The notes under the pieces are model-generated. The model was not told the origin of the DNA, ran no database searches, and saw only the letters and a program-made list of their open reading frames with translations. Of a DNA stretch of 12,774 nucleotides, positions 905-12,652 are shown piece by piece; the stretch's first letter is position 1, and each line of letters begins with the position of its first letter. This stretch comes from Armatimonadota bacterium (GTDB lineage: Bacteria > Sysuimicrobiota > Sysuimicrobiia > Sysuimicrobiales > Humicultoraceae). The translations under genes were made by a program, and so were the position numbers. The stretch lies in the NCBI GenBank assembly GCA_037443365.1, contig JBBIOM010000046.1, forward strand, positions 1 to 12,774. Direction: 5' to 3'.

Positions 905-1738
905 ATGGCCGGCCGCCGACCCCTTGCACGGATCGTCCTGGCGCTCCTGGTCACCCTCGTGGTGGTTTGGTCGCTTGCTCCCTATGTCTGGACCGTCTTC
1001 ACCTCGCTCAAGACCGAGAGGGAGCTCTACCAGTTTCCCGTCACCTACTGGCCCAAGGCGCCCACACTGATCAACTATGTCAACGTCTTCGCCCAGAACC
1101 CGTTCGGGAGGTTCCTGCTCAACAGCGTCATCGTCACCCTCTCGTCGACAGCGCTGTGCCTCTTCATCGCCTCGCTCGCGGCGTACGCCTTCGCGCGCCT
1201 GCGCTTCAAGGGCCGCGAGGTGCTGCTCGTGGGCCTGCTCGTGGTGGCGATGATCCCGCTGATCACCGTCATCGTCCCCCTCTACATCCTGGTGCGCGGC
1301 CTGGGCCTTCTGAACAGCTACGCGGGGTTGATAGCCCCGTACGTCACCTACTCGCTGCCGGTAGCGATCTTCATCCTGACCGCGTTCTTCCGTGAGATCC
1401 CCCGCGAGCTCGAGGAGGCCGCGCTGATCGACGGCTGCACCCGGCTCAACGCCCTCTGGCGGATCATCGCGCCGCTCTCGGCCCCGGGGCTCATCACGGC
1501 AGGGATCATCGTCTTCGTCTATACTTGGAACGAGTTCCTGGTGGCCCTCACGCTGACGAGCACCAACGCCGCGCGGACGATCACGGTGGGGATCGCGCTG
1601 TACCGCGGGGAGTTCGCCTTTCCCTGGGGCGTGATCACGGCGGCCGTGACGCTGGCGACGATACCGATCATGGTGCTGATACTTCTCGGGCAGCGGCTGG
1701 TGATCAAGGGGCTGACCGCGGGGGCGATCAAGGGATGA
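905..1738 (+). CDS. Carbohydrate ABC transporter permease (MalG/UgpE-like)
   Basis: ATG at 905 lies 4 nt after the previous stop, with GAGGG at 891-895. Contains 'TSLK', 'FLLNS', an EAA loop (EIPRELEEAALIDGC), 'WNEF' and C-terminal 'GLTAGAIKG'. Confidence 0.95.
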   Translation: MAGRRPLARIVLALLVTLVVVWSLAPYVWTVFTSLKTERELYQFPVTYWPKAPTLINYVNVFAQNPFGRFLLNSVIVTLSSTALCLFIASLAAYAFARLRFKGREVLLVGLLVVAMIPLITVIVPLYILVRGLGLLNSYAGLIAPYVTYSLPVAIFILTAFFREIPRELEEAALIDGCTRLNALWRIIAPLSAPGLITAGIIVFVYTWNEFLVALTLTSTNAARTITVGIALYRGEFAFPWGVITAAVTLATIPIMVLILLGQRLVIKGLTAGAIKG

Positions 1739-3123
1739 ACTCCGTCGTCGGCGCGATTCGAGTGGGCCTGGTGCCGCTGGTCCGTCCGCTGTTCCGCGGC
1801 GCCAGGATGGGGCTGGCCGAAGCCAGCCTCGAGGCGCTGAAGGGGCTTGAGGCACTGCTCGGGTTCAGCCTGACCTACGTCTCTCCCCCGGTTGGCGAAC
1901 TCGAGGAGGCGCTCAGGCGGACCGCCGAGGTCAGGGATCTACACGAGAGCGGATCCCTGGACCTCCTGCTCGTGGAGCACGTGACCTTCTCGTCCGGCGA
2001 CGTCATCGCCCCCTTCCTGGACCTCCCGATGCCGCTCGGACTCTGGGCCCTGCCCGAGGCGACGACCCAGGGCCCGCTGCCCCAGAACGCCCTGTGCGGG
2101 CTGAACCACGGCCTCAGCCTGCCCACGGCGCGCACAATCCCGGTGAAGTGGCTCTACGGCAACGCGGAAGACAGCCAGTTCCAGGCCAGGCTTGGGCTGA
2201 CCCTGCAGGCGCTGCGGGGGCGGCGGGCCCTGTGCACCGGCCGTGTATTGTGGGTCGGCGGCACGGCACCTGGCTTCTCGCGGCTGGAGGCTTTCCCGGA
2301 CCTGCCGCTGCGCGTGGACCGGGTTTCCCTGGGCGAGCTCTTCCGGGCGGTCGGTGCGATCGGTGAGGATGAGGTGAGCGAGGCCCTGGCCGCGCTCGAT
2401 GAGCCGCGCGGCCTCGAACTGGAGGCCCTCCGCCAGACGGTGAGGCTCGAGCTTGCGATCGAGCGCCTGGCGGCCGGGTACGATGGGGTTGCGCTGCGCT
2501 GCTGGCCCGAGGTTCCCGACCGCATGGGTGCGATGGCCTGCGCGGCGTTCGCCCGTCTCTCCGACCGCGGGCTCGCGCTCGCCTGCGAGGGCGATGCCGC
2601 GGCCGTGGCCTCGATGATCGCCGTCGCGGCGGTGAGCGGCGCGCCGGCCATCACCCTGGACCTGTCGCACGCGGCAGAGGACGGGCTGCTCTTCTGGCAT
2701 TGTGGAAACGCGGCCCGCGCCTGGGCGCGGGCAGGTGAGACACGCCTCTCCCCCCACTTCAACCGGGGCCTGCCCGCGGTGCGCGACATGCGGTTGGAGC
2801 CGGGGCCCGTGGGCGGCCTGAGGTTTCTCGAGGGGCGTAGGGCCGTGGTCTACGGCGGCGCGGTCACCGGGCGCGCTGATGCCTACGATGGCGTGTCCGG
2901 ATGGATCGGAGGGCTGCGTTGGGCAGGGCAGGAACTGCCCCCGGTGGAGTTCCTGGCCAGCGTGCTCAACCACAGGCTTCCCCACCACCTGGTATGGGGG
3001 CGCGGCGAGATCGAGGCGGCCCTGATCGAGATGTGCGCCTGGATAGGGTGCAGGGTTCTGCCTCCCGATCCGGAGACGCTCCTGCTGAGATGGCGCGGTC
3101 TTGAGGGCGCAGATGAGCGCTGA
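1735..3123 (+). CDS. L-fucose/L-arabinose isomerase-like sugar isomerase (FucI/AraA superfamily), substrate unknown
   Basis: ATGA overlap with the permease stop (1735-1738); 462 aa. Motifs 'LWALPE', 'NALCG', 'ALRCWPE', 'ACEGD', 'FWHCG' and C-terminal 'HH' match FucI-related isomerases, where E/D and H are the putative metal ligands. Confidence 0.8.
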   Translation: MNSVVGAIRVGLVPLVRPLFRGARMGLAEASLEALKGLEALLGFSLTYVSPPVGELEEALRRTAEVRDLHESGSLDLLLVEHVTFSSGDVIAPFLDLPMPLGLWALPEATTQGPLPQNALCGLNHGLSLPTARTIPVKWLYGNAEDSQFQARLGLTLQALRGRRALCTGRVLWVGGTAPGFSRLEAFPDLPLRVDRVSLGELFRAVGAIGEDEVSEALAALDEPRGLELEALRQTVRLELAIERLAAGYDGVALRCWPEVPDRMGAMACAAFARLSDRGLALACEGDAAAVASMIAVAAVSGAPAITLDLSHAAEDGLLFWHCGNAARAWARAGETRLSPHFNRGLPAVRDMRLEPGPVGGLRFLEGRRAVVYGGAVTGRADAYDGVSGWIGGLRWAGQELPPVEFLASVLNHRLPHHLVWGRGEIEAALIEMCAWIGCRVLPPDPETLLLRWRGLEGADER

Positions 3124-5314
3124 CCTGGGAAGGATGCGCCGGCTGGGGCTGCGCTGGCTGCGGTCGAGAGCCGATCGCGAGGCGGTCTTCGACCTTGACT
3201 GGGGTACGCTCACTGTGGCGGCCTACGCGCCTGGGGTGCTGCGGCTGCGCTTCGAAGGGCCGGCGACCGATGCCCCGCCGCGCCACGACTACGACCTGAT
3301 CGCCGCGCCGCCCGGTGGCGAGGCGTGGGATCTGGTTGAGAAGGACGGCCTCTACCGGTTCGAGAGCGGCGGCCTCTGCCTGGATATCAGCAGGAACCCG
3401 TTTGGGCTTCGACTGATTCGAGACGGCAGGGCTCTGCTGGAGACCACCTGTGACGGGCACATCAGCGGCGGGCTGCGCATCCCCTCCTTGGCGATCTACG
3501 AGCGTTCTGGGGAAGGCGCCTGGTGGATCGCGTTCGGTCTGCGCAGCGGCGAGGCGGTCTACGGGCTCGGCGAGAAGTTCGGGCGTCTGGACCGCCGTGG
3601 ACAGCTGGTCATCTCGTGGAACGAGGACGCGCTCGGCGTCAACAGCGAGCCCTCCTACAAGAACGTCCCGTTCGCGTGGAGCACCGAGGGCTGGGGGCTG
3701 TTCGTTCACACGACCGCGCGCGTATCTCACGGCGTCGGCTATCCGCAGTGGTCGGCGCGGAGCTATGCGCTGCGGGTCGAGGAGCCGGTGCTCGACCTGT
3801 TCCTGCTGGTGGGCGACTCCCCTGGCGCGCTGCTGGAGCGCTACACGCACCTTACTGGCCGCACGCCCCTTCTGCCCCGCTGGAGCTACGGCGTCTGGAT
3901 GTCACGCTGCTACTACGCCACCGCGGACGAAGCCCTCGCGGCCGCGCGTGGGCTGCGCGAGCGGAGCATCCCCTGCGATGTCATCACCCTCGACGGCCGC
4001 GCGTGGCTGAAGGTGGAGACGAGGTTCGGGTTCGAGTGGGATCGGGACCGCTACCCGGATCCCCGCGGCTTTGCCCGGATGCTGAGGGATTTGGACTTCC
4101 GCCTCTGCGTCTGGGAGTACCCATATATCTCGGTCCACAATCCGCTGTTCGCCGAGCTTGCCGGGAAGGGGTACCTGCTGCGCACGCCCTCGGGAGGGCC
4201 CTACATCTACCAGTGGGATCCAGGCCCCTTCGGCGTGATCCTGACGCCGCTGCCTCCCAGCGGGATCGTCGACTTCACCAACCCGGAGGCGTATGCCTGG
4301 TTCCGCGACGCGCACCGCCCCCTCTTCGAGGCAGGGGTGGACGTCATCAAGAGCGACTTCGGCGAGCAGGTCCCGCCCGAGGCGCTTGCGGCCAGCGGCG
4401 ACGATGGTAGGCGCCTGCACAACGTCTACCCGCTGCTGTTCAACCGGTGCGTCTACGAGGCCACGGCGCGCCACTCGCACGGGGGCGCGATCGTCTGGGG
4501 CCGGTCAGGGTGGACCGGAAGCCAGAGGTATCCCATACAGTGGGGTGGCGACCCGCAGGCCGACTGGGAGGGACTGGCCGCCAGCATCCGCGGCGGGCTG
4601 TCGTGGTGCATGAGCGGCGCGGCGTTCTACGCCCACGACATAGGCGGCTTCTACCACCTCAAGCCCGGGATGATGCCCGACGCGGAGCTCTACGTACGCT
4701 GGGCGCAGGCCGGCGTGATGTCTTCCCACACCCGCTTCCACGGCACCAGCCCCCGCGAGCCGTGGTACTACGGCGACGAGGCCGAGGAGATAGTTCGCCG
4801 CTGGCTGCTGTGGCGCTACCGCCTGATCCCCTACTTGGAAGCCGCGGCCTACGAGGCGCACAGGACCGGGATGCCGGTGATGCGCGCGATGCCGCTGGCT
4901 TTCCCCGGCGACTTAGCGGCCCAGGCCTTCGAGCATCAGTACATGCTGGGGCCGGCCCTGCTGGTGGCGCCGGTACTGGGGCCCGGCGGAGGGGTGCAGG
5001 TCTACCTGCCGGCAGGCGGGTGGTACGACGTCGAGTCGGGTGAGCGGCAGGAAGGGCCGCGCGTGCTCGATCTCAAGATGCCGCTCGACCGGATCCCTAT
5101 CTACGGCAGAGAGGGGCAGGTGCTGCCGCTGGGACCTGCCGTGCGGCATACCGGAGAGCTCGAAATGGGCACGCACCTAGAGGAGATGTGGGTCTTTGGC
5201 GATCCCTGGTGCTCCGTGGAGTGGCCCGATCTGGCAATCGGCGCCGACGACATGAGGCAGGGCCGCCTTCCGGCCGGACTGAAGCTGCGCCGCCTGGGCG
5301 TATCCAGCGCCTGA
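3113..5314 (+). CDS. Glycoside hydrolase family 31, alpha-xylosidase YicI-like
   Basis: ATG at 3113 with GAGGG at 3103-3107, overlapping the upstream gene by 11 nt; 733 aa. Motifs 'VYGLGEKF', 'SYKNVPF', 'VDFTNPEA', nucleophile motif 'KSDFGE' (YicI has KTDFGE), acid/base 'WGGD', 'HDIGGF', 'RFHG...REPW'. No signal peptide. Confidence 0.92.
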   Translation: MSADLGRMRRLGLRWLRSRADREAVFDLDWGTLTVAAYAPGVLRLRFEGPATDAPPRHDYDLIAAPPGGEAWDLVEKDGLYRFESGGLCLDISRNPFGLRLIRDGRALLETTCDGHISGGLRIPSLAIYERSGEGAWWIAFGLRSGEAVYGLGEKFGRLDRRGQLVISWNEDALGVNSEPSYKNVPFAWSTEGWGLFVHTTARVSHGVGYPQWSARSYALRVEEPVLDLFLLVGDSPGALLERYTHLTGRTPLLPRWSYGVWMSRCYYATADEALAAARGLRERSIPCDVITLDGRAWLKVETRFGFEWDRDRYPDPRGFARMLRDLDFRLCVWEYPYISVHNPLFAELAGKGYLLRTPSGGPYIYQWDPGPFGVILTPLPPSGIVDFTNPEAYAWFRDAHRPLFEAGVDVIKSDFGEQVPPEALAASGDDGRRLHNVYPLLFNRCVYEATARHSHGGAIVWGRSGWTGSQRYPIQWGGDPQADWEGLAASIRGGLSWCMSGAAFYAHDIGGFYHLKPGMMPDAELYVRWAQAGVMSSHTRFHGTSPREPWYYGDEAEEIVRRWLLWRYRLIPYLEAAAYEAHRTGMPVMRAMPLAFPGDLAAQAFEHQYMLGPALLVAPVLGPGGGVQVYLPAGGWYDVESGERQEGPRVLDLKMPLDRIPIYGREGQVLPLGPAVRHTGELEMGTHLEEMWVFGDPWCSVEWPDLAIGADDMRQGRLPAGLKLRRLGVSSA

Positions 5315-5413: not shown

Positions 5414-6130
5414 GTGCGCTGCGTTCGGGCGGCCATATGGGCCGCCGCCGTGATCTTGATGGCAACCGCAGTAGCCCCGGCCGAGGCGCAGGGCGCGCGC
5501 CCTGTCCCGCAGCGCCCTGCCGCGCCGGCACCCGCAGTTGCCTACTACCGCATCCAGGCAGGCGACACCCTCTGGGCCCTGGCCCGTCGCCACCGCACGA
5601 CCCCCGAGCGCTTGGCGGCCATGAACGGCATCGCGCTCTCCTCCACGCTCCAGATCGGGCAGCGGCTGAAGGTCCCGGTAATCCCTGCCGCCCAGGCCTC
5701 CCCGGTGAAGGCCGGCGCGACCGGGCGGCCTGCGCGTGAGGGCGTGCTGCCCTCGCGCGGGCAGAAGTGGGCCCTCGCGCTGACCGGACTTGCCACGCGC
5801 TACGTGGGCGTCCGGTACCGGTGGGGAGGCAGCAGTCCGGCGGGCTTCGACTGCTCGGGGTTCCTGTACTACCTGTACGCACGGAACGGGGTCGCGCTGC
5901 CGCGCACGACGTTTGCGATGTTCCACTCAGGGGTGCCGGTGCCGCGCGAAGCGCTCCAGCCCGGCGACATCGTGTTCTTCCAGACGCTTCGGCCCGGTCC
6001 GTCGCACGCCGGGATCTACCTGGGCGACGAGCGGTTCGTGCATTCCTCCTCGGGATATGGGCGAGTGACCATCACGCCGATGAGGCACCGCTACTACGGC
6101 CCGCGCTACCTGGGTGCCCGCCGCTTCTAG
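5414..6130 (+). CDS. Secreted LysM + NlpC/P60 (C40) peptidoglycan endopeptidase
   Basis: Signal peptide ending in A-E-A, Pro/Ala linker, one LysM domain (YRIQAGDTLWALARRH...LAAMNG...LQIGQRLKVP), and an NlpC/P60 domain with 'YRWGG...GFDCSG' (catalytic Cys), 'HAGIYLG' and 'FVHSS'. Confidence 0.95.
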   Translation: MRCVRAAIWAAAVILMATAVAPAEAQGARPVPQRPAAPAPAVAYYRIQAGDTLWALARRHRTTPERLAAMNGIALSSTLQIGQRLKVPVIPAAQASPVKAGATGRPAREGVLPSRGQKWALALTGLATRYVGVRYRWGGSSPAGFDCSGFLYYLYARNGVALPRTTFAMFHSGVPVPREALQPGDIVFFQTLRPGPSHAGIYLGDERFVHSSSGYGRVTITPMRHRYYGPRYLGARRF

Positions 6131-6156
6131 CCCGACGGACGCGGGTATGGGGCCGC

Positions 6157-7542
6157 ATGCGTGAGACCGCGGCGATCACCGCCGCACGACTCGTTGCATC
6201 GCTGTGCCGCCTGACGCGGCTCGGGGGAGGGACCACCCTGCCCGGCCGCGTCGCCGCGATGCTGTGGCCTGGCCTGATTCCAGGGTTATCGGCGCGCCTC
6301 GCAGGCGGTGTGGTCCTGATCTCGGGCACCAACGGCAAGACGACCACCGCCCGGTCCCTGGCCGGGATCCTGGATGCCGCCGGGATCTCCGTTGTGCACA
6401 ACCGCGCCGGCGCCAACCTGCTCTCGGGCATCGCCACGGCACTGGCCGCGCACGCGTCGCGCCGCGGCCAGACGCGCGCCGATGTCGGGCTCTTCGAGGT
6501 AGACGAGGCGACCCTCCCTGCCGCGGTCGAGGCGACCCGGCCCCGCGTCGTGGTTCTGCTCAATCTCTTCCGGGACCAGCTCGACAGGTACGGCGAGATA
6601 GACCTCGTCGCCGAACGCTGGCGGCACGCGTTGGCAGCGCTTCCGCCCGAGTCCGCCCTTGCCTACAACGCCGACGACCCCATGGTGGCCGACCTGTGCC
6701 GGGCGCGCGAGGGCAGGGTTCTGGCGTTTGGCCTGGAGGATGTTCCGCGCAGCGATACCCGAACCCTCGAGCACGCCGCCGACGCGCGCTACTGCTACCG
6801 GTGCGGGCGTCCCTACGAGTACTCCCTGATCACGCTGGGGCACATGGGGCACTACCGCTGCCCGGGGTGCGGCGCGGCCCGGACGGCGCCCCAGGTGCGT
6901 GCGCGAGAGGTGCGCCTCCACGGCGCAGACGGCGGTGCCGCCGCGATTGTCCACGACGGCGCACAGATCCCGGTTGCCACCGTGCTGCCCGGGCTCTACA
7001 ACATCTACGACGTCACGGCGGCTGCTGCCGCAGGACTTGCGCTTGGGATAGCCCCGGAGGCCGTGGCGCGCGGCATAGCCGCCACGGCGCCCGCCTTCGG
7101 GAGGGGCGAGCGCGTCGGCCTGGAAGGACGCGACGCGCTCATGTTGCTGGCCAAGAACCCGGCCGGGTTCAACGAGGTCCTGCGCACGGTCCTGCTGGCG
7201 GAGGCGGCCCCTGTAGTGCTTATCGCCATCAACGACCTGATCGCCGACGGAAGGGACATCTCGTGGCTGTGGGACGTGGACTTCGAGATGCTGGCGGAGC
7301 GCGCCCGCGCAGTGGTGACGACCGGGCTGCGGGCCGAGGACATGGCGCTGCGCCTAAAGTACGCGGGACTGGAAACCGGGCGGATGAGCGTGGAGAGAGA
7401 TGGAGAGCGGGCGCTTGCGGCCGCGCGCCAACTCCTGCGCGAGGGCGAGCGACTCTACATCCTGCCCACCTACACGGCTATGCTGCACCTGAGGGAGATA
7501 CTGGCGCGGCGGGGAGCCGTGCGCGGGTTCTGGAAGGACTAG
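6157..7542 (+). CDS. murT: Lipid II isoglutaminyl synthase subunit MurT (Mur ligase + DUF1727)
   Basis: ATG at 6157 (the longer ORF would overlap the upstream gene); 461 aa. 'GGGTTLPG', P-loop 'GTNGKTTT', 'GANL', 'EVDE', 'NLFRDQLDRYGE', 'NADDP', four-Cys zinc ribbon (CYRC...CPGC), 'LAKNPAG', 'DGRDISWLWD', 'PTYTAML'. Adjacent to gatD. Confidence 0.93.
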   Translation: MRETAAITAARLVASLCRLTRLGGGTTLPGRVAAMLWPGLIPGLSARLAGGVVLISGTNGKTTTARSLAGILDAAGISVVHNRAGANLLSGIATALAAHASRRGQTRADVGLFEVDEATLPAAVEATRPRVVVLLNLFRDQLDRYGEIDLVAERWRHALAALPPESALAYNADDPMVADLCRAREGRVLAFGLEDVPRSDTRTLEHAADARYCYRCGRPYEYSLITLGHMGHYRCPGCGAARTAPQVRAREVRLHGADGGAAAIVHDGAQIPVATVLPGLYNIYDVTAAAAAGLALGIAPEAVARGIAATAPAFGRGERVGLEGRDALMLLAKNPAGFNEVLRTVLLAEAAPVVLIAINDLIADGRDISWLWDVDFEMLAERARAVVTTGLRAEDMALRLKYAGLETGRMSVERDGERALAAARQLLREGERLYILPTYTAMLHLREILARRGAVRGFWKD

Positions 7543-7567
7543 GATGCCTCCGTCGGTGGGAGCGGTG

Positions 7568-8347
7568 ATGGAGCTTCGCATATGCCATCTCTACCCTGAC
7601 CTGCTGAACCTCTACGGAGACCGGGGTAACGTAATGACGCTGATCAGACGCGCGCAGTGGCGCGGCATCAGGGCCCTCGTGCTGGAGGCGCGTCTGGGCG
7701 ACCCGGTGGACCCCCGGGCCGGCGACCTCTTCTTCATCGGCGGCGGTGAAGACCGCCAGCAGCGCCTGGCCGCGCCCGACCTGCGCGAGGTGAAGGGGAC
7801 GGCGCTGCGCGAGGCAGCGCAGGATGGCGCGGCGATCCTGGCGGTCTGCGGCGGCTACCAGCTCCTGGGGCGCTACTACAGGCCCGCGGAGGGCCCGGAC
7901 CTGGAGGGGCTGGGGCTGCTCGACCTGCACACCGTGCACCCGGGGCCCGGAGCCCGCAGGCTGATCGGCAATATCGTCGTCAGGGAGAGCGGCACCGGGC
8001 GCATCCTCGTGGGTTTTGAGAACCACGGAGGCCGGACCTACCTGGGGCCGGGCGCGCGCCCGATCGGAACCGCGGTCGTGGGGTTTGGCAACAACGGCCA
8101 GGACCGCGGCGAGGGCGCGGTCTGGCGCTCTGTCTACGGGACATACCTGCACGGTCCGCTGCTGCCCAAGAACCCGTGGCTGGCCGACGAGCTGATCGCA
8201 TCGGCGCTTCGTCGCCGGTACGGCCAGGTCGAGCTGGCACCGCTCCCGGATGTCGAGGAGCACGCCGCAGCGGTCGCCGCGGCAGCGCGCGCCGGCGCCC
8301 GCGGTCTTACATGGCCCGGCACGCGGAATCCGGAGGCGGCGGCGTGA
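7568..8347 (+). CDS. gatD: Lipid II isoglutaminyl synthase glutaminase subunit GatD (CobQ-like type 1 glutamine amidotransferase)
   Basis: Probable start ATG at 7568 with GGGAG at 7558-7562 (alternatives at 7544 and 7565). 'HLYPDLLNLYGDRGN', 'GGGED', 'AVCGGYQLLG' (catalytic Cys), 'GFENHGG', 'GTYLHGPLLPKNP' (catalytic His). Confidence 0.93.
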   Translation: MELRICHLYPDLLNLYGDRGNVMTLIRRAQWRGIRALVLEARLGDPVDPRAGDLFFIGGGEDRQQRLAAPDLREVKGTALREAAQDGAAILAVCGGYQLLGRYYRPAEGPDLEGLGLLDLHTVHPGPGARRLIGNIVVRESGTGRILVGFENHGGRTYLGPGARPIGTAVVGFGNNGQDRGEGAVWRSVYGTYLHGPLLPKNPWLADELIASALRRRYGQVELAPLPDVEEHAAAVAAAARAGARGLTWPGTRNPEAAA

Positions 8348-9543
8348 ACAACGAGCGCGCGCCGCGACGCATCGCCTTCATAGTCGGCCTGGCTCAGCTC
8401 GGGTTCGCAACGGTCATACCCCTGCTGCCGCTCTATCTGACCGGATACCTTGGAGCCAGCGTCAAGCTCGTGGGCTTGGTTGTGGCCACGTTCGCGCTTG
8501 TGGAGACCTTCTTCAAGACGGCATGGGGCGGCGTCACGGACCGCATCGGGCGCAAGCCGGTTCTGATCGTCGGGCTGCTGCTAAGTGCCCTGGCGCCGCT
8601 CGTCATGGCGGTGCTGCGGACGCCGGTCCTGTTCGTGCCGCTGCGCCTGGTGGACGGCCTCGGTTCGGCTGCGCTCTGGCCGGCGGCTGCGGCAGCGGTG
8701 GCCGATGTGACCACCCGAGACCGCCGCGCCACTGGCATGGGCATGCTCAACCTGGCCTTCCTGGCAGGCCTGGCCGCAGGGCCTTCGCTGGGTCTGTTCG
8801 TCGCCGGGTTCACCGGCGAGGTGCGGGCCGGCTTCTACCTGTCGAGCGGCATCATGGTCCTGGCCGTCTTCGTGGCGGCGCTCTACTTCCCCGGGCGCAA
8901 CGACGGCGGCGGGCAGGCCGACGCTTTCGTCGGATACCACACCACAGCGCCCCGGCCAAGCCTGGCGAGCCTGGCAGGCAGCATCGCCGCCTCGCCGGTC
9001 CTGTTCGCGCTCTACCTGGTGGCATTCGTGCAGATGTTCGGCGTGGGCCTGCTGGTGCCGATCGCTGCCATCTTCGCCAAGCAGGTCGTGGGCCTGAGCG
9101 AGCAGTCCATCGGCGCCCTGTTCATGGCCATCGTTCTGGCCGTGGCCGTCGCCACGGTTCCTGCCGGACGAATGGCCGACCGCATCGGCAAGCGCCGCCT
9201 CGTCGCTGTGGGCATGCTGCTGGGCGCGCTGGGCATGTGGATGATGTCCGCGAGCGGCCGCCTGACCGAGATGCTCATAGCCGGCGCGCTGCTGGGCGCA
9301 AGTTACGCGCTGTCGGCGCCGGCCTGGCTGGCCCTGGTGAGCGAGCTGGCGCCGCCCAGCCACCTGGGCCTGGCCGTGGGCGCATCCGAGACCGTCCAGG
9401 GCCTGGGGCTGGTCCTGGGCCCGCTGCTGGGCGGCATCCTGTGGGATGCATTAGGGCCGCGCGCGCCGTTCGTGGCCAGCGCGATCGTGATGACCATCGG
9501 GACCGCCATCGCCCTGGCCGCGTTGCGCATCCGGAGGCGCTAG
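8344..9543 (+). CDS. Major facilitator superfamily transporter (DHA1/TetA-like)
   Basis: GTGA overlap with the gatD stop, GGAGG at 8332-8336; 399 aa with about 12 hydrophobic segments. Motif A appears in both halves (GGVTDRIGRK, GRMADRIGKR), plus 'GPSLG' and 'GPLLGG'. Confidence 0.92.
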   Translation: MNNERAPRRIAFIVGLAQLGFATVIPLLPLYLTGYLGASVKLVGLVVATFALVETFFKTAWGGVTDRIGRKPVLIVGLLLSALAPLVMAVLRTPVLFVPLRLVDGLGSAALWPAAAAAVADVTTRDRRATGMGMLNLAFLAGLAAGPSLGLFVAGFTGEVRAGFYLSSGIMVLAVFVAALYFPGRNDGGGQADAFVGYHTTAPRPSLASLAGSIAASPVLFALYLVAFVQMFGVGLLVPIAAIFAKQVVGLSEQSIGALFMAIVLAVAVATVPAGRMADRIGKRRLVAVGMLLGALGMWMMSASGRLTEMLIAGALLGASYALSAPAWLALVSELAPPSHLGLAVGASETVQGLGLVLGPLLGGILWDALGPRAPFVASAIVMTIGTAIALAALRIRRR

Positions 9544-10421
9544 CGCGCCCGGCGCAGAAGCGCGCCTCCCTGCACAAGGATCACGCCCCCCAGCACGAGC
9601 GCGGCGCCTCCCCACTGCGCCGCGGACATGGGCTCGCGCAGCAGCAGCGTGCCGGCCAGCGCGGCTACGACCGGTTCCAGCGTGGCCACCACGCTGGCCC
9701 TTCCGGCCTCCACGTGACGCAGGCCTGCGATGTAGAGGAGATAGGCAGCGCAGGTGGGGGCGGCGACCATGTAGGAGATCGCCGGGAAGGTGGCGGCGCG
9801 CGCCCCGGGCAGTCCGCCCGCGGCCGCCACCAACAGGACCGCCCCGAACCCGCTGGTGTAGAGCACGGTAGTCATTGGCGAGTGCCGGCGCAGCGCCGCC
9901 TTGCCGAAGATGCTGTAGAGCGCGTAGGTCAGCCCCGCGCCCAGGCCGGCTGCCAGCCCCCCGGTGGAGAGGCGCAGCGCCCCGGGCCCGAACGCCCCGA
10001 CGACCAGCGCGCAGCCCGCGAACACGAGCATCACGGCCGCGGCCTTCGTCGGCGTGATCGCCTCGCCGTAGATTGCGCGCGACAGGATCACGACCCATGC
10101 CGGTGCGGTGTACAGGAGCACCGCCGCGGTGGCCACGGTCGCAAGGTCGATCGCCGTGAAATAGACGGTCATGAACCCGGCGACGCTGACCGCTCCGAAT
10201 GTGGCCAGCAGGGGAAGGTCCCCGCGCCGCACACCGAGCGACGACCGGTCCGCGAGCAGGCAGTAGAGTAGCAGGACCGCCGCTGCGCCGCTTGCCCGCC
10301 AGGCGGCGGTCTCCAGCGGGCTCATGCCGGACGCCAGCAGGCTCCGCACCGGCACGCCAAGCGTCCCCCACAGCACGGCTGCGGCCGCCACCTGGAGATA
10401 CCCGCGCAGGGCCGGGCTCAC
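9540..10421 (-). CDS. EamA/DMT family transporter
   Basis: GTG start; 293 aa with about 10 hydrophobic segments in two EamA repeats. 'AAVLWGT', 'LLYTAPAWV', 'YALYSIFGK', 'ASVVATLEPVVA', 'LLREP'. Confidence 0.92.
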   Translation of the reverse strand: MSPALRGYLQVAAAAVLWGTLGVPVRSLLASGMSPLETAAWRASGAAAVLLLYCLLADRSSLGVRRGDLPLLATFGAVSVAGFMTVYFTAIDLATVATAAVLLYTAPAWVVILSRAIYGEAITPTKAAAVMLVFAGCALVVGAFGPGALRLSTGGLAAGLGAGLTYALYSIFGKAALRRHSPMTTVLYTSGFGAVLLVAAAGGLPGARAATFPAISYMVAAPTCAAYLLYIAGLRHVEAGRASVVATLEPVVAALAGTLLLREPMSAAQWGGAALVLGGVILVQGGALLRRAR

Positions 10422-10433
10422 AACAGCCCCGGG

Positions 10434-12008
10434 TCAGGGTTCTGTTTCGGCGAACAGCTCGTTCTGGCGCAGGAAGCTGCTGAGCAGCAGCCGCAGGTAC
10501 GGGCTATCGAGTTGGCTCTTGTAGCCGCGCAGTGCCGCGTGCTTGACCGCGAGCTCCTCGGGCTGGAGGTCGAGCCGCAACCAGCGGTAGCCGCTCCTCA
10601 GGGACTTGGGGGGCAGCAGGGCCTCATCCGGCGCGTACCGCAGGGGTCGCGGGAAGTCCCAGGCATGCACCAGGAACGTGTAGAGGCGCGGCTGAGCCAG
10701 CGCTCCTTGCCGCGAAAGCAGCAGTATGGCCTCGCGCACGAAGCCGTTGAGGGCACGGTGGTCGCCGTGCTTGTCGGCCTCGTGGTGCGTTACGACCACC
10801 GTGGGCCGCACCTGCCGCATGATCTCCACGAGGTCGCCCTGCAGATCAGCGCCGGTGTACGGCGCGCGCGCACGGAACGTATCCCGGTACGGCGAGGCGG
10901 ACACCCTGGTGAAAGGCGAGGTGTAGGGCCGTCCCCTCTCCCGCCGCTGTGTGGCCAGGGCCGTCAACCCGCGGTCGGGATACCCAAGGAAGAAGAGGTT
11001 GCCGTGCGGCACGCCGAGCCGGGCAGCCACGCCGCTGGCCTCCTGCTGCCGCGCGCGGCCCTCGGCAATGAAGTCGGCCGGCCTCGCCAGCAGCCGCCTG
11101 CCGCCCAGCGACGCTGCCAGGCGGTTGGCGTCGCCGTTCGTGGCGAAGACCATCCAGACCTCGGCGTCCGCGGCCAGCGCGCGCTGGATCAACCCGCCTG
11201 CCGCGAGCAGCTCGTCGTCGGCGTGCGCGGTGACGACCAACACCCGGTCGGCGTGCTCGGGCTCGGGGAGCGCATCGAGCGCGCTGCCCACCGCGCGTTG
11301 CGCTGAGAAGAGGCCCATGCTAAGGTACACGGCCGCCAGGGCCAGGCTGGTCAGAGCCAGCAGGGGCGCCTTCTGCGGCGATGGGCTGCTGCGCCGCCGG
11401 CGGCCGAGCCCCAGCACCTCGACCGTCATGCGCGCCTTCCCGCACCATCCCCGAACCAAGCCGTACTTCTCTTCCTTTCGAAGATGCGTCACACCCGTGA
11501 ACGGTAGCCGCTCGACCTTCCAGCGCTCGCGCCGCGCCAGTTCGGTCAGCGCGCGCTCGAAGCCGAACCGGGTTACGGCCAGGTGCGGCCGGTCGAGCAG
11601 CAGGCTCTTCCGGATGGCTCGGATGCCGGAGAGGTGCGGCAGCACCGTCTGTACGAGATCCGCCTCCAGGACGCCCACCGCCATGTCCGCGCGGCCCTGC
11701 CGAACCGCCTGCACGAGATCGCGGATCTCCTGGGGCTTGAGGTTGGCCAGGTCGGCGTCGAGCAGGAGCAGGATATCTCCTCCTGCCCGCCGCGCGCCGG
11801 CCAGGATCGCTCCACCCTTGCCCAGGTTCCTGGGAAGCCGGATGACGACGTCGGCGCCCGCCGCCGCCGCCTCCTCCGCGGTGGCATCGGAGGAGCCGTC
11901 CGAGACCACGATGATCTCGCTCACATCGCGCGTGCGGCGCGCGGCCTCGACGACACACGCCACCGTGCGCTCCTCGTTGTAGGCGGCGATGACGCATGAA
12001 GTCGTCAT
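10434..12008 (-). CDS. Fusion protein: N-terminal GT2 glycosyltransferase, single transmembrane helix, C-terminal PIG-L/LmbE family deacetylase
   Basis: ATG at 12008 overlaps the methyltransferase stop (ATGA); 524 aa. Residues 1-200 are GT2 ('VIAAYNEE', 'VVSDGSSD', 'NLGKGGA', DxD in 'LLDADL', 'LSGIRA'). Residues about 216-236 are hydrophobic. From about residue 255 it is PIG-L ('VLVVTAHADDE', 'ATNGD', 'RQQE', 'FLGYPD', 'HGDH', 'KHAALRGYKSQ'). Confidence 0.88.
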   Translation of the reverse strand: MTTSCVIAAYNEERTVACVVEAARRTRDVSEIIVVSDGSSDATAEEAAAAGADVVIRLPRNLGKGGAILAGARRAGGDILLLLDADLANLKPQEIRDLVQAVRQGRADMAVGVLEADLVQTVLPHLSGIRAIRKSLLLDRPHLAVTRFGFERALTELARRERWKVERLPFTGVTHLRKEEKYGLVRGWCGKARMTVEVLGLGRRRRSSPSPQKAPLLALTSLALAAVYLSMGLFSAQRAVGSALDALPEPEHADRVLVVTAHADDELLAAGGLIQRALAADAEVWMVFATNGDANRLAASLGGRRLLARPADFIAEGRARQQEASGVAARLGVPHGNLFFLGYPDRGLTALATQRRERGRPYTSPFTRVSASPYRDTFRARAPYTGADLQGDLVEIMRQVRPTVVVTHHEADKHGDHRALNGFVREAILLLSRQGALAQPRLYTFLVHAWDFPRPLRYAPDEALLPPKSLRSGYRWLRLDLQPEELAVKHAALRGYKSQLDSPYLRLLLSSFLRQNELFAETEP

Positions 12009-12652
12009 GCATGAACCGTCCCGCCCGGGCGCAGCGCAAGGAAGTACCGCCCCGAGCCGACCTGGCGGGTATCCACATCCTGGCAGCCCAGCGCGTAGAA
12101 CTGCTGCCGGAGCGCGCGCACGATCCACGGCAGAACCGCTCCGCCGGCAGAGTAACTCAAGATTACCCATCCCCCAGGGCGCGTGACGCGAACCAGTTCG
12201 GCGGGCACCGGGAAGGCGTTCTGCACGGTCACCAGGTCGAAGCTGCCCTCGCGGAAGGGAAGGCGTCCGGCGTCGCCCGCGACGAGCCGGACCGGCCAGG
12301 CGCCCGCGCAGGCGTGCCGTGCGGCGCGGGCCAGCATCTCCTGCGACAGGTCAACGGCGGCTCCGCGGCACCCGGGGAACCTGCGCACGAGAACGCTCAC
12401 CACCGCGCCGGTGCCCGTGCTGACGTCCAGCACCTGGGCCGGGGCCGCCGGCAGACGATCCAGGGCGGCCTCCAGCGGCGCGAGATAGCCGTCCTGGGGG
12501 AGCACGTCGGCCTCGTAGTTGCGCGCCAGGGCTCCGTATCTGGTGCGGGCGACGGCGCGCTGCAGGGGCGAGCCCACGAGCCGCGACGACCACGCGCCCA
12601 CGGTCAGGTAGATGGTGTCGGTTACAAACGAGCTCAGCCGGGTTGCCCGCAT
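12005..12652 (-). CDS. Class I SAM-dependent methyltransferase (UbiE/Methyltransf_11-like)
   Basis: ATG at 12652 with GGAG 6 nt upstream; 215 aa. Motif I 'VLDVSTGTG', 'AVDLSQEML', 'GDAGRLPFREGSFDLV', 'ELVRVTRPGG'. Confidence 0.9.
   Translation of the reverse strand: MRATRLSSFVTDTIYLTVGAWSSRLVGSPLQRAVARTRYGALARNYEADVLPQDGYLAPLEAALDRLPAAPAQVLDVSTGTGAVVSVLVRRFPGCRGAAVDLSQEMLARAARHACAGAWPVRLVAGDAGRLPFREGSFDLVTVQNAFPVPAELVRVTRPGGWVILSYSAGGAVLPWIVRALRQQFYALGCQDVDTRQVGSGRYFLALRPGGTVHA

Follow-up and report, generated by a model that had tools for sequence, protein, structure and literature searches.

Why should a glycosyltransferase and a deacetylase share one polypeptide with a membrane helix between them, and on what would such a protein act? 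This question is raised by a minus-strand gene at 10434..12008 of the window (the whole stretch of DNA analysed, 12,774 nt, from an uncultured Armatimonadota bacterium of soil or the subsurface, contig JBBIOM010000046.1), which encodes a GT-A glycosyltransferase domain followed by a PIG-L/LmbE deacetylase domain. An earlier note, made from the letters of the window, had proposed a two-step enzyme with its domains on opposite faces of the membrane. We found that the fusion is genuine and conserved and that the protein is, in all likelihood, bitopic, with the transferase predicted inside and the deacetylase outside. The two domains may act in sequence on one membrane-associated N-acetylhexosamine (HexNAc) conjugate, a reading that we put close to, and somewhat short of, an even chance. 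The gene and its parts are as follows.

10434..12008, minus strand: fused gene of 524 amino acids (aa), comprising GT-A glycosyltransferase, linker, one transmembrane (TM) helix and PIG-L deacetylase (open reading frame (ORF), Pfam, 47-sequence alignment, AlphaFold2 (AF2) model); stop codon at 10434..10436
11388..12008, minus strand: GT-A domain, aa 1–207, predicted cytoplasmic, with a cationic amphipathic helix at its end, aa 184–207 (Pfam PF00535, domain model)
11751..11759, minus strand: DxD motif D84-A-D86, putative nucleotide-sugar and metal site (alignments)
11364..11411, minus strand: Arg/Lys-rich linker, aa 200–215, GRRRRSSPSPQKAP (K + R counts; predicted local distance difference test score (pLDDT) <50)
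11301..11363, minus strand: predicted single TM helix, aa 216–236 (hydropathy 2.04; AF2 helix at aa 214–242)
10437..11276, minus strand: PIG-L/LmbE deacetylase domain, aa 245–524, predicted to be exported (Pfam PF02585, VIA-align structure comparison)
11211..11225, minus strand: HADDE, aa 262–266, with H262 and D265 as putative zinc ligands and D264 as putative general base (invariance; roles by the HXD1D2+H motif, PMC4101496)
10758..10769, minus strand: HGDH, aa 414–417, with H414 and with H417 as putative third zinc ligand (alignment, motif)

The minus-strand ORF spans 578 open codons (10434..12170). We took ATG 12008, which gives the 524-aa protein, as the true start, since it shares an ATGA with the stop codon (TGA) of the methyltransferase gene upstream and coincides with the N-termini of 47 aligned homologues (M55 of the longer ORF). 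The longer 578-aa start at ATG 12170 was rejected, as it overlaps the methyltransferase gene and the homologues begin at M55. Pfam matched Glycos_transf_2 (PF00535) at aa 4–121 with 83.2 bits (cut-off 23.3) and PIG-L (PF02585) at aa 257–428 with 97.5 bits (cut-off 28.2). The AF2 full-length model had a mean pLDDT of 85.4 and a predicted template modelling score (pTM) of 0.56, with both domains at about 94 and the linkers at low confidence. The uninterrupted 524-aa ORF with both domains, as described in the earlier note, was thus recovered as a single frame exceeding both Pfam cut-offs; the coordinates given there for the helix and HADDE were exact, and HGDH was found at aa 414–417.

Searches of 5.8 billion proteins returned 133 matches, and both domains were present in 86 of the 120 90%-identity clusters listed; the named fused clusters came from Armatimonadota metagenome-assembled genomes (MAGs), one Patescibacteria MAG, one Anaerolineae MAG and Moorella mulderi. 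Among the best 150 of 1.84 billion 50%-identity representatives, at least 28 were full-length fusions, and the fused clusters at this identity spanned Armatimonadota, Chloroflexota, Bacillota and Patescibacteria. The GT-A/PIG-L architecture is therefore rare but established, and not unique; its rarity, on which the earlier note could not pronounce, amounts to at least 28 clusters at 50% identity. A search of genome contigs for related loci returned 80, each matching one half only, though records near the window may have lain outside that search. A literature search found no description of a GT-A/PIG-L fusion, with subscription journals mostly outside the search, so that absence from print is not established.

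In 25 of 41 related genomes from independent assemblies, an unbroken single frame encodes the whole protein; these are the genome of the window (G000, of which the window is contig C46; 2.2 Mb, 97.7% complete), 19 of 24 other genomes of the same family and all 5 of a second family. These counts include two unpublished genomes, G024 (full length) and G015 (none), without which the figure is 24 of 39. In G007, the fused gene is cut at a contig end. One relative (G020, contig C35, 26714–28063) carries an in-frame fusion without aa 151–222, so that the GT domain is short of its end, the linker is missing and the TM helix has lost its first part; this gap could reflect either a genuine deletion or a fault in the assembly. 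Contigs from public runs showed zero indels across 9540..12652, and one contig from a second sample covered 11283..11445 without difference. As these runs are all from one study, with X1 possibly the source of this DNA and X2–X4 covering the stretch only by short contigs, the contig check gives weak independent support. No RNA data set was listed for this stretch.

An assembly or annotation artefact, in which a lost stop codon or a frameshift merged two genes, would agree with the separate halves seen in three genomes from other families of the same order (G030, G032 and G027). Yet the single frame without internal stops in 25 of the 41 genomes, the 86 two-domain clusters from several sources and the public contigs without indels all speak against it, and we regard the artefact as effectively refuted. 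The earlier note had singled out 11300–11420 for such a check and had named separate genes in close relatives, together with a lost stop or frameshift here, as what would overturn the fusion: separate genes do exist in the three genomes, and no lost stop or frameshift appeared in the contigs.

The split forms indicate how the fusion may have arisen. In all three genomes, the halves are separate genes on different contigs. The G030 transferase (about 212 aa) stops right after the amphipathic helix and has no TM segment; the G030 deacetylase (325 aa) starts with a basic stretch followed by a hydrophobic N-terminal anchor. On the basis of these forms, we assign the TM helix to the deacetylase half, so the fusion appears to have linked a cytoplasmic enzyme peripheral to the membrane with one anchored in it. 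The earlier statement that the fusion links families known mainly as stand-alone genes holds in that the fusion is genuine and conserved, while both halves also occur alone.

We further assessed the topology of the protein. The segment at aa 216–236, with a Kyte-Doolittle hydropathy of 2.04 over 19 aa, is the sole strongly hydrophobic segment, and each of the 47 fused homologues has exactly one such 19-residue window, scoring at least 1.75, at the corresponding position, without conservation of the residues themselves. AF2 models it as a single straight helix of about 29 residues (aa 214–242). In the 15 residues flanking the helix there are five K + R before and one after; over the 47 homologues, the means were 5.4 on the N side and 1.2 on the C side, with N exceeding C in 45. 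The transferase must be cytoplasmic because it lacks a signal peptide and depends on a nucleotide sugar, and a cytoplasmic transferase followed by one helix would place the PIG-L domain outside. The PIG-L-only relatives point the same way: a hydrophobic segment precedes the motif in 91 of the 109 representatives whose HxDDE falls within residues 1–110, the remaining 18 include several that are truncated or carry a shorter signal-like segment, and many N-termini resemble classic signal peptides ending shortly before the motif. These predictions make it very probable that the protein is bitopic, with the transferase inside and the deacetylase outside. Both topological claims of the earlier note, that the hydrophobic segment is a TM helix and that the positive-inside rule puts the GT domain in the cytoplasm and the deacetylase outside, agree with the one segment in 47 of 47 homologues, the modelled helix, the charge bias and the predicted export of the stand-alone relatives.

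By comparison, it seems very improbable that both domains are cytoplasmic, the helix being a re-entrant or monotopic anchor for work at the inner leaflet in the manner of eukaryotic PIG-L or of GpgS and GpgD of Pseudomonas aeruginosa. Eukaryotic PIG-L, with one N-terminal helix, has a catalytic domain that faces the cytoplasm, and AF2 gives no certainty on how the two domains of the fusion are oriented to each other (pTM 0.56). The P. aeruginosa GpgS and GpgD are likewise predicted to be cytoplasmic (PMC12713373). However, a straight helix of about 29 residues with a hydrophobic core of 19–21 residues, the strong charge bias across it and the signal-peptide-like N-termini of relatives just ahead of the catalytic motif argue for a spanning segment.

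For the deacetylase domain, the PIG-L/LmbE family motif is HXD1D2+H, which supplies zinc binding and the general base, with X being any residue (PMC4101496). H262, D264, D265 and H417 were invariant in 47 of 47 fused homologues, as were E266 and D416, and H414 was conserved in the ≥90% class. The spacing between D265 and H417 is 152 residues, just above the range of 97–148 listed in PMC4101496. X is Ala here and Ser, Asn or Pro in other fused forms; HADDE, earlier considered atypical against a usual HPDD, is thus an ordinary form of a motif that admits any X (PMC4101496), and the Ala appears to be a habit of this lineage. By VIA-align, aa 245/253–524 matched diacetylchitobiose deacetylase (Z 22.1, root-mean-square deviation (rmsd) 2.4, 206 aligned residues), BshB (Z 22.0) and TT1542 (Z 20.5), with BC1534 and LnmX also among the fold matches, and Foldseek matched MshB with an E value of 1.8e-10. 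The NCBIfam models for BshB1 (36.7 bits, cut-off 182.5), MshB (27.1 bits, cut-off 224) and BshB2 were all far below cut-off. The PIG-L half is best placed as a member of the superfamily (PF02585; CAZy CE14) that has an intact catalytic motif and lies outside the characterised subfamilies.

Relatives of this domain form a large group, with 692 matches at E ≤ 1e-30, mostly PIG-L-only proteins of 450–530 aa. The same clade was found behind a TM helix after a GT4 glycosyltransferase (P0108), a GNAT acetyltransferase (P0273) and PEMT/ICMT-type membrane methyltransferases (P0366 and P0320), and joined to a 7-TM domain (P0304). Because of these fusions, we consider the coupling of a cytoplasmic modifier across the membrane to this deacetylase a recurring design. 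To our knowledge, the PIG-L/LmbE (CE14) family has so far been known only from the cytoplasm or the cytoplasmic face, and in a literature search that left subscription journals mostly outside we found no description of an exported LmbE-family enzyme. PplD was considered as a possible exported PIG-L and rejected, as its paper shows a CE4 enzyme. The exported clade with its recurrent trans-membrane fusions is the newest aspect of this analysis. As a side observation, fused forms of 680–770 aa from Chloroflexota and Bacillota (P0074–P0094, P0255 and P0262) carry about 160 extra C-terminal aa after PIG-L; in P0255 and P0262 this region matched no Pfam family at E ≤ 0.01, and a similar extension occurs on many PIG-L-only relatives of 450–560 aa.

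For the glycosyltransferase domain, aa 1–212 were folded alone (pLDDT 89.3, pTM 0.85) and aligned to 48,161 PDB representatives without a pre-filter. The nearest folds were MpgS (Z 20.8), GpgS (20.6) and mannosylglycerate synthase (MGS; 19.6), followed by DPMS (17.8), ArnC (16.7) and GtrB (15.4). Consistently, all GT-domain matches re-examined among the 50 best Foldseek rows of the full-length model were GpgS, MpgS or MGS, the best with Z 21.9, rmsd 2.2, 191 residues and 27–30% identity. The modelled fold is thus closest to the retaining glycosyl-(phospho)glycerate synthases and not to the polyprenyl-phosphate GT2s; ArnC, GtrB and DPMS lie 3–5 Z units below the GpgS group, while the fusion does have an amphipathic helix and one TM helix. 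The earlier label 'GT2' stands as a Pfam name, but by fold the domain groups with retaining GpgS, MpgS and MGS; phosphoglycerate was indeed one of the acceptors that the note had proposed for assay. Sequence profiles fail to separate GpgS from DPMS, ArnC and GtrB, since only the nucleotide-binding half aligns.

No substitution of D84 or D86 occurred in any of the 47 fused homologues or of the 27 GT-domain sequences. Together with GpgS (CAZy GT81), MpgS and MGS, the closest solved folds to aa 1–206/211, the domain has DxD, GKG, LSG..A and (F/Y)G.E motifs, whereas these three enzymes are soluble proteins of about 320 aa with soluble acceptors, other C-terminal parts, no membrane tether and no fused deacetylase. 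The acceptor loop LSG(Q/I)RA (LSGQRA here) aligns with LSGEYA of GpgS, and the invariant R130 sits where GpgS has Tyr and DPMS has Phe, the E-Y of GpgS becoming Q/I followed by R130. K178 and K181 are nearly invariant in the GT-domain family. Judged by the alignments, R130, K178 and K181 would fit an anionic acceptor without identifying it, and the acceptor is not assignable from the motif alignment to GpgS and DPMS. The amphipathic helix had a median hydrophobic moment of 0.45 and a median charge of +3 in 26 family members (0.36 and +2 in this protein). About 2,070 stand-alone relatives shorter than 288 aa span the whole GT domain under contradictory automatic names, and the ESM Atlas labels the nearest clusters automatically as 'glucosyl-3-phosphoglycerate synthase family'.

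Several known systems place a sugar transferase before a deacetylase. MshA, BshA and PIG-A are GT4 transferases; like MshA/MshB, BshA/BshB and PIG-A/PIG-L, the fusion would use an N-acetylglucosamine (GlcNAc) transferase first and then a zinc deacetylase of the PIG-L fold, with the HxDD+H motif and the fold in common, but in those pairs the genes are separate and the deacetylases are cytoplasmic or on the cytoplasmic face. In ArnC/ArnD, FlmF2/NaxD, LgmA/LgmC and HpnI/HpnK, a lipid carrier is the substrate of a small GT-A enzyme, after which the amino sugar loses its N-acyl group before envelope transfer; the deacetylases that partner these polyprenyl-phosphate GT2s belong to the CE4 or YdjC families, are thought to act before flipping and are not fused.

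Two lipid pathways are closer in logic. According to PMC10128005, in HexSDF of Clostridioides difficile, HexS adds N-acetylhexose to a glycolipid, the acetylated intermediate builds up without HexD, and HexF is MprF-like; the authors' model puts deacetylation outside after flipping, the localisation being a model only. The fusion would resemble HexSDF in placing an N-acetylhexosamine on a membrane lipid inside, in flipping and in an outer de-N-acetylation that yields a cationic or zwitterionic aminoglycolipid, the side being a prediction for the fusion. Unlike the fusion, HexSDF consists of three separate proteins, with HexS annotated as similar to monogalactosyldiacylglycerol synthase and HexD as a CE4 polysaccharide deacetylase. 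GpgSDF of P. aeruginosa makes GlcNAc-phosphatidylglycerol (PG) and then glucosamine-PG (PMC11483062 and PMC12713373); its GpgS, a GT4 protein distinct from the GT81 GpgS above, and GpgD (COG3233) are the two predicted cytoplasmic proteins mentioned above, and GpgF is COG0392/UPF0104 (PMC12713373, Table 2). As in that operon of synthase, deacetylase and UPF0104/PF03706 flippase, synthase and deacetylase are encoded together here, and a PF03706 gene follows the fusion in one relative (G037). Unlike GpgSDF with its separate GT4 and COG3233 genes, the fusion uses a GpgS-like GT-A domain and PIG-L in one ORF, and unlike both HexSDF and GpgSDF, G000 has no PF03706 flippase gene. By analogy, the fusion is best read as following the logic of HexSDF and GpgSDF with unrelated, fused enzyme families.

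The fused gene lies in an operon whose members are all on the minus strand, the other two being as follows.

12005..12652, minus strand: class I S-adenosylmethionine (SAM)-dependent methyltransferase, 215 aa, upstream and, from the ATGA overlap, translationally coupled (Pfam Methyltransf_25/11)
9540..10421, minus strand: EamA/DMT 10-TM transporter, 293 aa, 12 nt downstream, candidate exporter or flippase (Pfam EamA, 148.9 bits)

TIGR00950 scored 134 bits on the EamA gene, below its cut-off of 230. Among 14 relatives' loci with a full-length fusion, a methyltransferase homologue adjoins the fusion in 12 (upstream on the same strand in 8) and an EamA gene lies downstream in 8. Six more divergent fused loci were also scanned: the fused gene of G037 shares its 3ʹ end with the start of no gene but the flippase-like one of PF03706 (MprF/UPF0104), which overlaps it; in G034, an MprF-like pair is close by; a polyprenyl synthase gene adjoins the fusion in three (G009, G023 and G008), and SIS and Amidohydro_1 genes, which we read as NagB/NagA-like, adjoin it in two.

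The stand-alone GT relatives also have characteristic neighbours. In 5 of 5 Bacillota/Atribacterota loci (L001, L002, L004, L005 and L008), relatives of about 210 aa lie directly behind rseP (M50) and ispG, usually in a dxr-rseP-ispG-(proS) run, with dxr in four, cdsA in one and proS between ispG and the transferase in two. In 2 of 2 proteobacterial loci, they lie beside DedA/VTT genes. These surroundings are lipid-carrier and phospholipid neighbourhoods. Downstream of the five Bacillota/Atribacterota transferases are polC or rimP-nusA, often via an MgtC-family gene.

From the observed architecture, conservation, motifs and topology signals, we infer a donor sugar, an acceptor, a transport step and a substrate shared by both domains. 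The cytoplasmic GT-A domain, held at the membrane by the amphipathic and TM helices, would take an N-acetylhexosamine from its nucleotide sugar and attach it to an acceptor that bears phosphate and is associated with the membrane, either a phospholipid head group such as PG or phosphatidylglycerol phosphate (PGP) or a polyprenyl phosphate; configuration would probably be retained, given the resemblance of the domain to GpgS. The product would then be moved to the outer leaflet, for which the operon's EamA transporter is the local candidate, an MprF/UPF0104-type gene occupying that position in some relatives. On the outer face, the zinc-dependent PIG-L domain would strip the N-acetyl group to expose a free amine, giving a cationic or zwitterionic amino-sugar lipid or glycoconjugate, and the co-transcribed methyltransferase probably modifies the same molecule. 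The membrane-crossing intermediate of the earlier note thus has a published precedent in the HexSDF model (PMC10128005), while the sharing of one substrate belongs to the proposal itself.

A bolder version of this proposal, which we consider rather unlikely in full, is that a large, unrecognised exported PIG-L/LmbE clade is repeatedly TM-fused to cytoplasmic enzymes that install N-acetyl sugars, acetyl or methyl groups, an amine being acetylated inside and exposed outside. Here, the acceptor of the GpgS-like domain would be the phosphoglycerol head group in PG or PGP, which resembles 3-phosphoglycerate, and the outer domain would give rise to glucosaminyl-PG or another cationic lipid of that type, through a pathway with no relation to GpgSDF.

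A number of observations weigh against sequential action on a membrane-associated conjugate. The closest folds, GpgS, MpgS and MGS, use soluble acceptors. The NCBIfam GpgS model NF010496 gave 65.4 bits against a cut-off of 262, aligning only aa 2–101, and the polyprenyl-phosphate models were also below cut-off: PpgS 51.8 against 370, ArnC 48.8 against 529 and the Halobacterial dolichyl-phosphate hexose transferase 31 against 375. The topology comes from sequence-based prediction. EamA-type transporters mainly move small metabolites, and G000, at 97.7% completeness, has no PF03706 gene, the EamA gene holding that place; PF03706 occurs in 27 of the 41 genomes, in a pattern that does not follow that of the fusion. 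In G032 and G027, the split GT has a ComB-like phosphatase gene as its neighbour, which recalls GpgS/GpgP. A SAM-dependent methyltransferase is cytoplasmic, so an amine that is first exposed outside is beyond its reach unless the molecule comes back in. The halves are split in G030, G032 and G027, and of five distant genomes with one half, one has both, three have GT only and one has PIG-L only. The two halves are therefore not obligately linked. Because of the soluble-acceptor folds, the EamA gene, the phosphatase neighbour, the lack of PF03706, the rare co-occurrence and the cytoplasmic methyltransferase, the acceptor and the coupling of the two activities remain inferences.

Many of the same observations would suit a soluble product, in which a 3-phosphoglycerate-like acid receives HexNAc from the GpgS-like domain, EamA exports the resulting small glycoside and PIG-L deacetylates it outside or during uptake or recycling. 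The nearest folds and best sequence models (GpgS, MpgS and MGS), the ESM Atlas label, the EamA gene that follows in 8 of 14 loci and the ComB-like phosphatase gene in two genomes all agree with such a product, as does the activity of the characterised PIG-L enzymes MshB and BshB on small GlcNAc glycosides (PMC4101496). Nevertheless, a membrane tether, an amphipathic helix and a far-side deacetylase are hard to justify for a freely diffusing product; moreover, the GpgS model reached only 65 bits against 262, the E-Y of the GpgS acceptor loop is replaced by Q/I and the invariant R130, and the gene neighbourhoods in other phyla concern lipids and isoprenoids. We judge a soluble product clearly unlikely.

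Alternatively, the two domains may share a location and act at different levels, the GT domain starting or decorating a lipid-linked glycan and the exported PIG-L domain removing N-acetyl groups from GlcNAc once an envelope polymer is complete, be it peptidoglycan, an exopolysaccharide, or a wall polysaccharide or the linkage unit of one, in the manner of the CE4 enzymes PgdA, PplD and PgaB. Hundreds of exported PIG-L-only relatives without a GT domain would be natural under this reading. The stand-alone PIG-L of G030 sits between PAP2 and CE4 genes (locus L104, 6660..9645, minus strand: a same-strand run of PAP2 phosphatase, anchored PIG-L and CE4 polysaccharide deacetylase), and the opposite-strand neighbours in the window are the cell-wall genes MurT, GatD and NlpC/P60-LysM, with synteny to about 51% identity. 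PplD itself is a single-TM extracellular deacetylase acting on linkage-unit GlcNAc (PMC8807736). Even so, a polymer substrate leaves the repeated GT-A, GT4, GNAT and PEMT fusions to the PIG-L clade unexplained, the cell-wall genes are convergent and not co-transcribed, and none of the characterised LmbE enzymes in PMC4101496 acts on a polymer. Overall, we think action on a polymer unlikely, though it has more in its favour than a soluble product, and we continue to prefer sequential action on one membrane-associated conjugate.

Amino-sugar lipids and de-N-acetylated envelope glycans alter surface charge, and we know of only two such lipid pathways tied to genes, HexSDF and GpgSDF, both very recent. 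If sequential action on one conjugate is correct, the fusion would be a third, unrelated solution that hard-wires a sidedness only modelled in HexSDF, with synthesis inside and deacetylation outside, and it would be the first case of a PIG-L/LmbE enzyme that works outside the cell. It would also provide a function lead for the roughly 2,070 stand-alone GpgS-like glycosyltransferases that are automatically labelled 'glucosyl-3-phosphoglycerate synthase' or 'polyisoprenyl-phosphate glycosyltransferase'.

The remaining observations concern other parts of the window. Two ORFs without a Pfam match, 1525..3123 (plus strand, 532 aa) and 1939..3213 (minus strand, 424 aa), overlap each other between the ABC permease and GH31 genes. 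A 673-aa ORF at 8250..10271 (plus strand) overlaps the MFS and EamA genes, has no Pfam match and is rich in Arg, Gly, Pro and Ala; we read it as a spurious frame driven by GC content. The MFS transporter gene (8176..9543, plus strand), with a Pfam MFS_1 match starting at aa 67, and the EamA gene run towards each other. Also convergent to the operon are the MurT and GatD genes for isoglutamine amidation of lipid II (5767..7542 and 7544..8347, both plus strand), which scored well under the NCBIfam equivalog cut-offs (MurT 241 bits against 800, GatD 200 against 450). The MurT match begins at aa 131 of an ORF that overlaps the NlpC/P60 gene, and the true start is probably further downstream. In relatives, the MFS-GatD-MurT-NlpC block adjoins the operon down to about 51% identity.

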